A stretch of DNA of 64,000 bases from the NCBI GenBank assembly GCA_964423885.1, contig CAYRGD010000003.1:73270-137269 (forward strand), given 5' to 3'. The notes beneath the pieces were generated by a model that ran no database searches, had not been told where the DNA came from, and saw only the letters and a list, made by a program, of their open reading frames with translations. Shown here piece after piece: positions 24,667-41,884 of the stretch; position 1 is the first letter of the stretch; each line of letters starts with the position of its first letter. This DNA comes from an uncultured Candidatus Saccharibacteria bacterium (GTDB lineage: Bacteria > Patescibacteriota > UBA1384 > JACPKC01). A program made the translations under genes and the position numbers.

Positions 24667-24756
24667 GGAGAGGTGGCCGAGCGGTTGAAGGCGGCGGTCT
24701 TGAAAACCGTTAGGCGCGTAAGCGTCTCGTGGGTTCGAATCCCACCCTCTCCGCCA
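24667..24756 (+). tRNA. tRNA-Ser (anticodon TGA)
   Basis: Cloverleaf read by eye: acceptor GGAGAGG/CCTCTCC, anticodon loop CTTGAAA, long variable arm, T-loop GGTTCGAATCC, encoded CCA. Confidence 0.85.
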
Positions 24757-25459: not shown

Positions 25460-25549
25460 GGAAGGGTCGCATAGTGGCCGAGTGCGCGCGCTTGGAAAGC
25501 GCGTAGGCCCGCAAGGGTCTCGAGGGTTCGAATCCCTCCCCTTCCGCCA
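25460..25549 (+). tRNA. tRNA-Ser (anticodon GGA)
   Basis: Acceptor GGAAGGG/CCCTTCC. Anticodon stem CGCGC/GCGCG with loop TTGGAAA. Long variable arm. T-loop GGTTCGAATCC. CCA encoded. Confidence 0.85.
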
Positions 25550-38913: not shown

Positions 38914-38974
38914 ATCTCCAGGGTATTCTCAATGCTGAACCGGTTTGGTACAGTACCCGCGTTCAATCCGATAT

Positions 38975-39049
38975 TCCCGGATAGCTCAACGGCAGAGCAA
39001 CTCGCTGTTAACGAGTAGGTTGCTGGTTCGAATCCAGCTCCGGGAGCCA
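38975..39049 (+). tRNA. tRNA-Asn (anticodon GTT)
   Basis: Acceptor TCCCGGA/TCCGGGA. D-arm GCTCAACGGCAGAGC. Anticodon loop CTGTTAA. T-loop GGTTCGAATCC. CCA encoded. Confidence 0.85.
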
Positions 39050-39053
39050 ACAC

Positions 39054-39078
39054 AAAAACCCCCAACATTGGGGTTTTT
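39054..39078. terminator. Bidirectional rho-independent terminator (AAAAACCCC–loop–GGGGTTTTT)
   Basis: Read directly from the sequence. Lies immediately 3' of tRNA-Asn. Confidence 0.7.
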
Positions 39079-39145
39079 GTTGAATTTTGACTATTGTGAG
39101 GGAGGGGTATGATCTATATGAGCAGGTTCTAAATTACGGAGGGCT

Positions 39146-40894
39146 ATGTCCAAACTCAATGTAGACCAAAAAACCATACATGATTTGCTAACAGATAAGA
39201 AAGCAGATTTCCTAATACCAGATTATCAGAGACCTTATGCGTGGGATGAAGACCAGTGCCAAACGCTGTGGGACGATATAACGGCTTTCGCATTTCCCAA
39301 TAATGACCACACCCAATTCGATAAAAACGAAGAATATTTTCTTGGCTCTATCGTTACCTTTAAGAATGAAAATAGGCAGCTTGAGGTTATTGACGGTCAG
39401 CAACGCCTAACTACGCTGATGCTTATCTTGAGGGCATTCTACGATAGATTCGCTAATGCACAGGATCCTAATTCTACATCGACCAGAGCAATGATCGAAA
39501 AGTGTCTGTGGAGAATTGATGAATTTGGCCGCGTAGACAAGGATACGCTCAAGATCAACTCGGAAGTTGCTACAGACCATGACAAGGACGAGTTTTTAGA
39601 ATTATTGCGCAGCGGACAATCTGCAACAGGAAAAAGTCAGTACGCAAAAAATTACGATTTCTTTAAACAAAAGATTAATGAACTAGCTGAAAACGCGATC
39701 CCCAACTTCCCGTATCTGCCCGCCCGCATCCTTGGTAACTGTATTTTGTTACCAATTGAGGCTGAGTCACAAGATACGGCGCTAAGGATATTCTCGACCC
39801 TCAATGATCGTGGTTTGCCACTTTCTGACGCCGACATTTTCAAGGCGCAATTCTATAAATACTTTAATGATAAAAGCCAAAACCAAAAGGACGAGTTTAT
39901 TGAGGATTGGAAGAACCTAGAAGATGTAACGAGTAAGATTTTCCACCCAAATACTGGCACGCCGATGGACGAACTCTTTACTCGTTATATGTACTACTTG
40001 CGTGCCAAAGAAGGCAATAAGAATACTACAGTAGAGGCTCTGCGCAAGTTTTACGAGCGGGGTAAATATAAATATCTCAAGGAAGACAATACCATTGAAA
40101 ACCTAAAGTCTCTGGCACTTTTTTGGGAAAATGTGGCACGACAAAATGAAGAAATATTTTCGGAAGATGTCCTTAAAAAGTTGTTTATTTTGAACTATGC
40201 ACCTAATGGCATGTGGCAATATATGACATCAGTATATTTCCTGCAAAACAAGAATGATGACGAAACACTGGATGAGACACCATTTGTAGATTTTCTCGAT
40301 AAGATCACTGCTTTCATTTTTGCCTACGCGATAACTAGCCCAGGTGTAAATGCGTTAAGAACGCCTGTATTTGATGAAATGATTAATATCATCAATGGTA
40401 TTGATGTTAGTTTCTCTGGTCGTAAGTTCAACCCGCACCAGGCAAGGTCGTTTTTTGATAACTACAAGTTCACCAATGGTCGCCCAATAACGCGCTCCAT
40501 CATTACATGGTATGCCTTCACTTTTAAAGGTCAGCCGTTGCTTGATATTGGCGAAACATTTCAGTTGGAACATATCTTCGCCAGAAAACGACAAGACATG
40601 GAAGGTGGACTCGTAAATGCAGCTAATCTCGAGTCGCTAGGCAATAAAATTTTACTCGAAGAAAGTATCAACATCAGGGCATCTGATTTCAGTTTTAAGG
40701 ATAAGAAAAAGATTTATAGCGGTGAGGGACGACGAGGTAGGAATCAAGAAAAAAGTAAAATAGCCGAAATTGAAAACATGATAGAGCGCACCAAGTTTGA
40801 TGAAAATGACATTGCTGAACGCAATAAGACTATTCTCGATAGATTCTTTGATTTCTTAGACAAAGAAAACTTACTGTCTGACTTAATAGATTAG
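39146..40894 (+). CDS. DUF262/DUF1524 two-domain nuclease (GmrSD/SspE/BrxU-like type IV restriction-type enzyme)
   Basis: N-terminal FLIPDYQRPYAW and DGQQRLTTL motifs (DUF262, a ParB-like NTPase). C-terminal QLEHIFARK…N…N region consistent with the DUF1524 His-Me finger. AT-rich codon usage. Confidence 0.75.
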   Translation: MSKLNVDQKTIHDLLTDKKADFLIPDYQRPYAWDEDQCQTLWDDITAFAFPNNDHTQFDKNEEYFLGSIVTFKNENRQLEVIDGQQRLTTLMLILRAFYDRFANAQDPNSTSTRAMIEKCLWRIDEFGRVDKDTLKINSEVATDHDKDEFLELLRSGQSATGKSQYAKNYDFFKQKINELAENAIPNFPYLPARILGNCILLPIEAESQDTALRIFSTLNDRGLPLSDADIFKAQFYKYFNDKSQNQKDEFIEDWKNLEDVTSKIFHPNTGTPMDELFTRYMYYLRAKEGNKNTTVEALRKFYERGKYKYLKEDNTIENLKSLALFWENVARQNEEIFSEDVLKKLFILNYAPNGMWQYMTSVYFLQNKNDDETLDETPFVDFLDKITAFIFAYAITSPGVNALRTPVFDEMINIINGIDVSFSGRKFNPHQARSFFDNYKFTNGRPITRSIITWYAFTFKGQPLLDIGETFQLEHIFARKRQDMEGGLVNAANLESLGNKILLEESINIRASDFSFKDKKKIYSGEGRRGRNQEKSKIAEIENMIERTKFDENDIAERNKTILDRFFDFLDKENLLSDLID

Positions 40895-40899
40895 AGGGC

Positions 40900-41361
40900 A
40901 TGCACGAGCCATATCTCACCTCATTCTTGCAAGGCAAATCTCCAGACCACCGAGGTCGCTTTCATCGCGACATCATCGCGTTCTCCAATAAGGAACTGGA
41001 GCAGTACCACGATTACATTCAGTGGATCTTCCCGCTCACCGAGAAAAGCGTGGCAATGTCGTGGACCCCTATTCTTGAGGATGTTGAAGTAATTCAACAG
41101 CTTAGAGCTGATAGAGCAGTTCTCGAAAATATGCGAGCTGCTTTGAGAGGGATGCAACGCTTTTATGCGGAAACAGACCATTGGTTACGACGCAACAACC
41201 ACAACCACCTTCGCATTGCCCGTATTCTCAAGTCAGCGGTGCTGTTAGGCCTTACAGAAGAAGCCGAACATTTTTACACGTTCATTCTTCATCGGCTTGG
41301 AGATAGTCAATCGGTAACAGATGAGAGCTTGGAATTTTGGAGGAATAGTATCGCTAAGTAG
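40900..41361 (+). CDS. OGFr_N-like domain protein (homolog of the opioid growth factor receptor conserved N-terminal region). Function unknown.
   Basis: The YHDYIQWIFPLTE and HNHLRIARILKSAVLLGLTE motifs match the HSYIQWLFPLRE and HNNLRITRILKSLGELGLE motifs of OGFR as recalled from memory. Starts 5 nt after the nuclease gene. Confidence 0.6.
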   Translation: MHEPYLTSFLQGKSPDHRGRFHRDIIAFSNKELEQYHDYIQWIFPLTEKSVAMSWTPILEDVEVIQQLRADRAVLENMRAALRGMQRFYAETDHWLRRNNHNHLRIARILKSAVLLGLTEEAEHFYTFILHRLGDSQSVTDESLEFWRNSIAK

Positions 41362-41383
41362 GGTATTGTCGGTCGGTGCGGAG

Positions 41384-41884
41384 CTAGTCTTTCGGAAGCG
41401 GGATGGGTTCGCTTGGATCGTCCGTCGGATGGGGCGATTCGTGCGGTGGGTGCATCATCCCTTTCGGTACGGGTATCGGACGACTTGGGTCGTCGATCCT
41501 AGGACGTGGTGCCGGCGTAGTGGTTTTCGGGATTGGTATAGGCTCGCTGAGGTCTGTATCGCTTGATTGCGGTGTGCCGGGCGCAGTGCGCAGTTGGCTG
41601 GGCAACGGGATTGGATCGCTCAGCTGCTCGACTCGGCGCGTCACGCCGGTTCTGGGTTTTGGGATCGGCTGATGACGTGCGTCATGGGGAGCGGCCTCTG
41701 CGCTGGCACTGCCACCAGTAAGGAGCGCTGCTGCGGCACCGATGCTGGTAATGAACCGGCGCCATGATGACGGCTCTCGGGCAGACTTTTCTGGCGTGAC
41801 CGGATCTGTCGATGCTGCGCGCTGATCCGCATCTTCGGGCGTGAATCCTTCGCGTTCACCCATGTATCCTCCTTTGTTTGACAA
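41384..41884 (-). CDS. Tat-signal secreted proline-rich repeat protein ([DESR]PIP[ILVK]P[KS] repeats)
   Basis: SWRRFITSIGAAAALL twin-arginine signal, then five copies of the PIPxPK/PIPLPS motif. 166 aa. Confidence 0.55.
   Translation of the reverse strand: MSNKGGYMGEREGFTPEDADQRAASTDPVTPEKSAREPSSWRRFITSIGAAAALLTGGSASAEAAPHDARHQPIPKPRTGVTRRVEQLSDPIPLPSQLRTAPGTPQSSDTDLSEPIPIPKTTTPAPRPRIDDPSRPIPVPKGMMHPPHESPHPTDDPSEPIPLPKD

Follow-up and report, generated by a model that had tools for sequence, protein, structure and literature searches.

The locus analysed here joins two kinds of described protein. GmrSD, a type IV restriction enzyme, restricts DNA with glucosylated hydroxymethylcytosine (glc-hmC) and is blocked by the injected protein IPI*. 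T-even-like phages, the classical targets of GmrSD, also inject ADP-ribosyltransferases; Alt, ModA and ModB of T4 are such enzymes. The second kind is defined by the N-terminal domain of the opioid growth factor receptor (OGFr_N), a family named after a vertebrate protein. As far as we know, no organism has yielded a biochemical function for this family since that "receptor" was first described. To our knowledge, no described GmrSD system includes an OGFr_N component. The two were found next to each other in a 64,000-nucleotide stretch of DNA (the window) from an uncultured Candidatus Saccharibacteria bacterium (contig CAYRGD010000003.1), in the following order:

39146..40894, forward strand: full-length GmrSD-family type IV restriction enzyme, 582 amino acids (aa), identified by Pfam, PADLOC and homolog alignment
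40895..40899, forward strand: 5-nt spacer AGGGC between the GmrSD stop and the OGFr_N start, from the sequence and a terminator scan
40900..41361, forward strand: stand-alone OGFr_N protein, 153 aa, all-alpha, identified by Pfam PF04664, homologs and an AlphaFold2 model

In the reading preferred here (probability roughly 0.55), the OGFr_N gene is a horizontally acquired accessory gene that lies beside GmrSD without forming a conserved system with it, and its domain probably acts on an ADP-ribose-containing molecule. The ADP-ribose role is proposed because members of the family are fused to ARH, NADAR and Macro domains, because they adjoin sirtuin and RNA-repair genes, and because they share an invariant cluster of polar residues.

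The open reading frame (ORF) at 40900-41361(+) runs from an ATG to a TAG and is intact. The string YHDYIQWIFPLTE spans residues 36-48 of the 153-aa product, and HNHLRIARILKSAVLLGLTE spans residues 101-120. With hmmscan, PF04664, a Pfam model built from vertebrate OGFR proteins, matched at E=5.1e-14 and 52.7 bits (gathering cutoff 22), and 52 direct homologs of the protein were found. Judged by these profile and homolog matches, the likeness to OGFr_N is true homology and no chance resemblance of motifs. Bacteria commonly encode stand-alone OGFr_N proteins, about 146-190 aa long: contigs taken at one genome per species gave at least 587 matches, a word-indexed search gave at least 3163 clusters and an exhaustive hidden Markov model search gave at least 5203 representatives at 50% identity. 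The Prokaryotic Genome Annotation Pipeline (PGAP) calls such genes "opioid growth factor receptor-related protein". No model of PADLOC-DB v2 or NCBIfam matched the window protein, and the sole counterpart of OGFr_N in PHROGs was phrog_38436, a family listed without a function. Within the bacterial OGFr_N family, the window protein is an ordinary member, intact and stand-alone. The original prediction, made from the letters of the DNA, had described a 153-aa ORF with both strings, had taken it for a stand-alone prokaryotic OGFr_N homolog and had placed it 5 nt downstream of a co-oriented DUF262/DUF1524 nuclease gene. All of this was borne out, by the sequence, by the Pfam score, by the single-domain architecture with its family fold match to a Marseillevirus protein, and by a spacing of exactly 5 nt. 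The prokaryotic homolog is thus real; the novelty that had been implied for it was overstated, as PGAP already names such genes.

The fusion signal to ADP-ribosyl hydrolases was strong. ARH, NADAR and Macro are the three unrelated folds of ADP-ribosyl hydrolases, and each was found fused to OGFr_N. Fusions with ARH (ADP_ribosyl_GH) were found at L003:6188-7444 (E=2e-33) and L181:292-1680 (E=6e-63) and in proteins P0284 and P0292, and represent no fewer than two subtypes of ARH. These two subtypes were also found as separate genes directly downstream of OGFr_N (L191/L195 and L198), and as read from these gene arrangements the occurrence of ARH fused or adjacent to OGFr_N is a fusion/fission pattern. 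The ARH-OGFr_N fusion matched 0 PADLOC families. Fusions with NADAR were found at L118:7347-8480 (E=4e-38) and in a giant virus at L127:7353-9758 (E=8e-23), with a further NADAR match below threshold in L129; NADAR also lies near OGFr_N in L090 (3 genes away) and L086. The Macro fusion (P0402) carries a canonical MacroD/YmdB-type domain (E=4e-47). When the 10 long proteins at the top of an unbiased whole-library OGFr_N search were scanned, a confident partner domain was present in three, all three of them ADP-ribosyl hydrolases, and one more had a marginal Mdv1 match.

The adjacency signal to ADP-ribose-type genes was modest. SIR2 genes adjoin OGFr_N in L066, L073 and L107 (E of 1e-41 or lower), genes for T4-type polynucleotide kinase-phosphatase (Pnkp) do so in L088, L103/L128 and L106, and an RNA ligase gene follows OGFr_N at 5 nt in L087.

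Interchangeable pairing with Macro, ARH and NADAR is also the known pattern of ADP-ribosyltransferase toxins (PMC9503650). OGFr_N could on this ground be a "writer", that is, an NAD+-consuming or ADP-ribosylating effector to which Macro, ARH and NADAR serve as antidotes in the manner of DarT-DarG. Such a toxin role is highly improbable, because thousands of stand-alone OGFr_N genes, the window copy included, lack an adjacent eraser, and a toxin without one would be lethal. The SIR2 neighbours, SIR2 being a writer, better suit an eraser or processing enzyme, and the all-alpha fold of OGFr_N is unlike those of known ADP-ribosyltransferases.

For conservation analysis, 171 distinct OGFr_N domains from bacteria, phages, giant viruses and one RNA virus were aligned, which gave two conserved blocks in the window gene:

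40999..41049, forward strand: conserved block 1, residues 34-50, E-x2-H-D-Y-I-Q-W-I-F-P-L-x-E-x-S, from alignments of the 171 domains
41200..41223, forward strand: conserved block 2, residues 101-108, H-N-H-L-R-I-A-R, from the 171 domains

All family-invariant residues of block 1 (E34, H37, Q41, W42, F44, P45, S50) and of block 2 (H101, N102, R105, R108) are present in the window protein. Conservation of at least 97% was found for the polar residues E34, H37, Q41, S50, H101, N102, R105 and R108, and also for W42, F44, P45, F88 and W147. Two invariant histidines with a glutamate and two arginines look more like the site of a phosphoesterase or hydrolase than like a protein-binding surface, as far as residue conservation can suggest. 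Residue 107 (codon 41218-41220) is alanine in the window copy; this position is threonine or serine in 169 of the 171 domains and alanine in 2, and all closest relatives of the window protein have threonine or serine there. D38 and H103 vary outside bacteria, and an HD-domain or metal-site reading of the "HD...HNH" string was rejected on this basis.

The AlphaFold2 model of the window protein was confident (predicted local distance difference test score, pLDDT, 92.2) and all-alpha, with 9 helices. In Foldseek searches of this model, no match below E=0.2 was obtained in the PDB, and a profile search of PDB sequences with OGFr_N was empty. The sole significant fold match came from BFVD, a predicted Marseillevirus protein named "opioid growth factor receptor" (E=4.6e-6, TM score 0.69), so that the structural check proposed with the original prediction returned a confident model and recovered a member of the family.

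The fold also has generic matches to protein-binding helical repeats, and only such matches outside the family; it is itself helical-repeat-like. OGFr_N is moreover fused to enzymes of diverse activity, including UCH and OTU deubiquitinases. Both features would suit a non-catalytic binding domain, receptor-like in the sense of the vertebrate literature, that recognises a target (peptide, nucleic acid or ADP-ribosylated molecule) and steers the enzymes fused to it. This is very unlikely: two His, two Arg, Glu, Asn, Gln and Ser are conserved almost without exception, as is more typical of an active site, and the thousands of single-domain copies would have nothing to target.

OGFr_N was also found in viruses of several kinds. 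Small OGFr_N genes occur in contigs of jumbo-phage size; among jumbo phages in culture, Xanthomonas phage Xoo-sp13 and phages of Stenotrophomonas are examples with such a gene. Giant-virus proteins combine OGFr_N with UCH, OTU/UBA, FYVE and NADAR domains. An 8.5-kb IMG/VR contig (L117:166-6837) encodes a 2223-aa alpha-like RNA-virus polyprotein with the order viral methyltransferase, OGFr_N, FtsJ-like methyltransferase, superfamily 1 (SF1) helicase and RNA-dependent RNA polymerase. In other plus-strand RNA viruses, the position that OGFr_N has in this polyprotein is occupied by macro "X" domains. The distribution of OGFr_N mirrors the one over bacteria, jumbo phages, nucleocytoplasmic large DNA viruses (NCLDVs) and RNA-virus polyproteins that was reported for NADAR and Macro (PMC9503650). 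OGFr_N is not mentioned in that survey of NAD and ADP-ribose functions in viruses. Among eukaryote- or giant-virus-type proteins, three tandem OGFr_N copies were seen in P0268 (2438 aa), and the set L123-L125 and L129-L131 combines OGFr_N with ubiquitin-system domains (UCH peptidase; OTU with UBA).

At the locus itself, the setting is that of a small foreign insert beside a tRNA gene:

38975..39049, forward strand: tRNA-Asn (GTT), from ARAGORN and Rfam (tRNA, 71 bits)
39052..39080, forward strand: terminator-like hairpin with an 11-bp stem followed by a T-run, from inverted repeat I7 and the terminator scan
39050..41370, no strand: low-GC islet of about 2.3 kb that holds only GmrSD and OGFr_N, from the GC profile

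The tRNA-Asn forms the left edge of the islet, and the hairpin separates it from the two-gene unit; tRNA genes are typical insertion hot spots. GC is 0.36-0.49 within the islet and 0.63-0.72 outside, and the islet, which ends at a convergent host gene, is clearly imported DNA. By gene, GC is 39.9% for GmrSD and 47.2% for OGFr_N, with flanks at 63-66%; this 7-point difference suggests that they could have separate histories. Neither an integrase nor a convincing att repeat was found around the islet, where just short repeats at chance level (11 nt) were present, and no tandem repeats were found there. The order host-GmrSD-OGFr_N was also present in an independent short-read assembly (L081).

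An 11-nt imperfect direct repeat, AGGGTATT[C/G]TC, at 38920-38930 and 41360-41370 brackets the tRNA-Asn and the islet; 12 families of repeats of such length were found in the region, where chance often produces them. The ORF that converges on the islet (41384-41884, reverse strand) encodes a proline-rich 166-aa protein with a four-fold motif [DE]P[SI]xPIP[LVI]PK (DPIPLPSQ, EPIPIPKT, RPIPVPKG, EPIPLPKD), and no tandem repeat was detected in its DNA. Elsewhere in the window, about 700 nt separate two tRNA-Ser genes (24667-24756 and 25460-25549), whose anticodons are TGA and GGA; no rRNA gene was found in the window.

The proximal gene of the islet combines a DUF262 ParB-like NTPase domain with a DUF1524 His-Me nuclease domain (Pfam GmrSD_N, E=8e-42; GmrSD_C, E=2e-6, 28.2 bits against a cutoff of 23). 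Its product also matched many PADLOC models of DUF262/DUF1524 nucleases, of the Orf5, HEC-06 and SspE types, with E down to 1e-42. Homologs of 577-580 aa match it along 99-100% of its length, and the gene is therefore taken as intact. These homologs share 68-76% identity and come from many phyla, with hosts such as Chromatium, Pectobacterium, Vibrio, Prochlorothrix, Anaerolineae, Moraniibacteriota, Bacteroidales and others. As this identity is kept across distant phyla, GmrSD appears to be a very mobile single-gene cassette, and the comparison implies that the subfamily spread horizontally, very recently and widely. No relative of the window GmrSD protein was found in viral contigs.

The GmrSD stop codon (TAG, 40892-40894) is followed after 5 nt by the OGFr_N ATG on the same strand, and no terminator-like site was found between the two genes; because of this short gap and the missing terminator, the genes are probably co-transcribed. 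A purine-rich GAGGG ends 1 nt before the ATG. As it stands so close to the start codon, translational coupling is more plausible than a canonical Shine-Dalgarno site.

This close arrangement suggests a dedicated partnership, in which OGFr_N would be a sensor, regulator or immunity factor (antitoxin) of GmrSD and the two genes one defence system, much as the original prediction had proposed. The genes lie on the same strand 5 nt apart with no terminator between them, and both are foreign to the host genome. OGFr_N also stands last behind a restriction subunit in two other close relatives (HsdR in L133; HsdR with a NucS-like gene in L083). For a survey of the pairing, 212 other OGFr_N loci were collected (80 genomic, the contigs of the 4 closest proteins, 48 viral and 80 metagenomic). 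A tblastn search with the window GmrSD found a relative in 0 of the 212, the window's own contig being the only match, and a scan of the OGFr_N loci for the DUF262 hallmark motif DGQQR gave no further candidate. From the other side, OGFr_N was found behind the closest GmrSD homologs in 0 of 5 loci (L214-L218). The gene downstream of these homologs (74-76% identity) was an unrelated 161-aa ORF in L214, a type I restriction-modification (R-M) operon in L215 and a DUF2779 gene in L216-L218. A 161-aa gene also stands upstream of OGFr_N in L083; the L214 ORF is unrelated to it, as it is to OGFr_N. Because the pairing is absent from both the OGFr_N and the GmrSD side, OGFr_N is not an obligate partner, antitoxin or immunity factor of GmrSD. 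Pairing in the window organism alone, a GmrSD subfamily that spreads as a single gene, the difference in GC and the lack of a PADLOC model match for OGFr_N make a dedicated partnership improbable, and the partner, sensor or immunity role of the original prediction was not upheld. Its broader suggestion of a nucleic-acid- or nucleotide-related role stands in part: a nucleotide-related role is plausible, and the evidence points to ADP-ribose or NAD chemistry rather than to DNA cleavage.

The closest relatives of the window OGFr_N are from low-GC Bdellovibrionales and bacteria of the candidate phyla radiation (CPR). Its subclade is rarer and low in GC, with 45-67% identity to P0002, P0003, P0004, L001-L003 and L133; the close clade was defined by at least 45% identity to the window protein. 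Bona fide defence genes were found beside OGFr_N of this closest subclade in 5 of about 8 informative loci. Neighbours were GmrSD in the window itself, an AbiP2 reverse transcriptase (E=2e-174) together with a type III restriction endonuclease (E=2e-184) in L003, and an LmuB-like SMC ATPase in L001. In L133, an OLD/AriA-like ATPase occurs with HsdS/HsdR, and OGFr_N begins 31 nt after HsdR; in L083 a type I R-M system and PDC-S11 are present. A weak form of the neighbourhood argument therefore holds: the subclade tends to sit in defence islands generally, and not with GmrSD. The survey of neighbours proposed with the original prediction thus returned frequent defence islands for the close subclade and no GmrSD.

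OGFr_N could also be a housekeeping-type protein of metabolism or repair, with no role in phage conflict and brought close to GmrSD just by a shared tRNA-linked hot spot. Most members of the family, in Methylobacterium, Microvirga, Brevundimonas and SAR116-like marine bacteria, do occur in syntenic housekeeping contexts, and GmrSD and OGFr_N differ in GC. Against such a pure passenger stand the defence genes beside the closest subclade and the frequent occurrence of the family in jumbo phages and giant viruses, each a pattern typical of conflict-related genes, and we consider it unlikely.

Several small genes recur around OGFr_N. An FtsK_gamma winged-helix gene (about 120 aa) lies upstream in 7 loci from CPR-like or low-GC bacteria, in 6-7 loci OGFr_N is accompanied by an unannotated protein, some 140 aa long, whose N-terminus is HAD-like (DxDGT), and a conserved 153-154-aa protein without an assigned function lies directly downstream in 3 loci. 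The loci with these small-gene modules are L001, L003, L136, L181, L198, L206 and L207; L076, L140, L147 and L157; and L002, L003 and L082. On two megaplasmids, L220 (pMPPla107) and L221 (a Halomonas plasmid), WYL-domain regulator genes annotated by PGAP lie a few genes from OGFr_N, and a 361-aa ORF at L191:5900-6985 resembles WYL regulators by eye only.

In the preferred reading of an accessory gene acting on an ADP-ribose-containing molecule, OGFr_N was acquired horizontally and is now the second of two genes in a low-GC islet beside tRNA-Asn. The first gene encodes a highly mobile single-gene type IV restriction enzyme of the GmrSD type, and OGFr_N is a separate cargo gene from a subclade that tends to land in defence islands. 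The domain would most likely be a small enzyme, less likely a ligand-binding module, for an ADP-ribose-containing molecule. Candidate substrates are ADP-ribose phosphate or cyclic-phosphate by-products of Tpt1/KptA-type RNA repair, and further candidates are sirtuin-derived O-acetyl-ADP-ribose and a macromolecular ADP-ribosyl adduct. In the islet, OGFr_N would have an accessory role, removing or processing ADP-ribose-type modifications or signals that arise from phage infection. It might, speculatively, act alongside GmrSD and not through it. By a further speculation, it could complement GmrSD against phages that have hypermodified DNA and inject ADP-ribosyltransferases.

A number of points weigh against this reading. 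The OGFr_N fold has no solved relative in the PDB searches, and therefore no mechanism can be borrowed for it. Ala107 in the window copy may mean that its activity is altered, reduced or impaired. Most bacterial OGFr_N genes are found in lineage-specific housekeeping synteny without an informative partner (tdh/kbl in Brevundimonas, gpsA/EVE in Methylobacterium, TauE in Microvirga). The probable co-transcription with GmrSD is read from the DNA sequence. Recurrent fusion or adjacency with NAD/ADP-ribose enzymes was found for the OGFr_N family and not for the window copy: with limited queries, no ADP-ribose-related gene was found beside the window OGFr_N or elsewhere in the window. Gene families of ADP-ribose metabolism and RNA repair filled 15 of 802 slots at 0-2 genes from OGFr_N and 4 of 1708 slots farther away, an enrichment that was rejected as proof, the queries having been chosen after the neighbours had been seen. 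The count is inflated because these queries were picked from neighbours already noticed, and without self-hits it came to 4 near and 1 far. The 148 unbiased immediate neighbours held just 2 SIR2 and 2 Pnkp genes, together with 4 FtsK_gamma and 2 HD genes; none of these four families reached 2 members in 148 control genes taken 5-7 positions away.

At the level of the family, the ADP-ribose hypothesis is moderately well supported. The link of OGFr_N to ADP-ribose at this level appears to be new, since no paper in the searchable literature connects OGFr_N with ADP-ribose, phage defence or bacteria. Taken by itself, the locus is ordinary, a routine member of the family whose arrangement is a one-off. 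The fusions, the SIR2 and RNA-repair neighbours and the invariant His/Arg-rich site narrow the function of OGFr_N to enzyme activities that can be tested. A wider proposal is offered tentatively and at less than even odds: OGFr_N may be an unrecognised NAD+/ADP-ribose eraser of novel fold that serves conflict and RNA repair in hosts and viruses, forms the core of animal OGFR and acts in the islet as an anti-phage accessory. If true, the known ADP-ribose "erasers" would gain a new fold, the presence of OGFr_N in jumbo phages, giant viruses and an RNA virus would be explained, and the biology of OGFR and OGFRL1 in animals would call for re-reading.

Compared with known systems, the upstream gene is a full-length member of the GmrSD/BrxU/SspE-type DUF262-DUF1524 enzymes, which act as single proteins and for which no OGFr_N component was found here. 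With the N-terminal region of vertebrate OGFR/OGFRL1, the window protein shares the PF04664 match, the blocks H-[DN]-Y-I-Q-W-x-F-P and H-N-x-L-R-[IL]-x-R, and a predicted all-alpha fold related to the viral "OGFR" model. It differs in being prokaryotic, in consisting of the domain alone (153 aa, no C-terminal repeat region) and in Ala107; as it ends with the domain and lacks the vertebrate C-terminal region, it is not to be called a receptor. Bacterial OGFR-related proteins such as WP_005742763.1 (Pseudomonas megaplasmid pMPPla107) and WP_035557762.1 (Halomonas sp. KO116) are likewise single domains of about 150-190 aa; they are 30-34% identical to the window protein, which belongs to the rarer defence-island subclade. 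Macro, ARH, NADAR and 2H phosphoesterases differ from OGFr_N in fold, with no detectable similarity in sequence or structure. Like OGFr_N, they are spread over bacteria, jumbo phages, NCLDVs and RNA-virus polyproteins, and the two-histidine phosphoesterases also share with it two invariant histidines and arginine residues. By analogy with these families, and without homology to them, our hypothesis is that OGFr_N works as Macro, ARH, NADAR and 2H proteins do.

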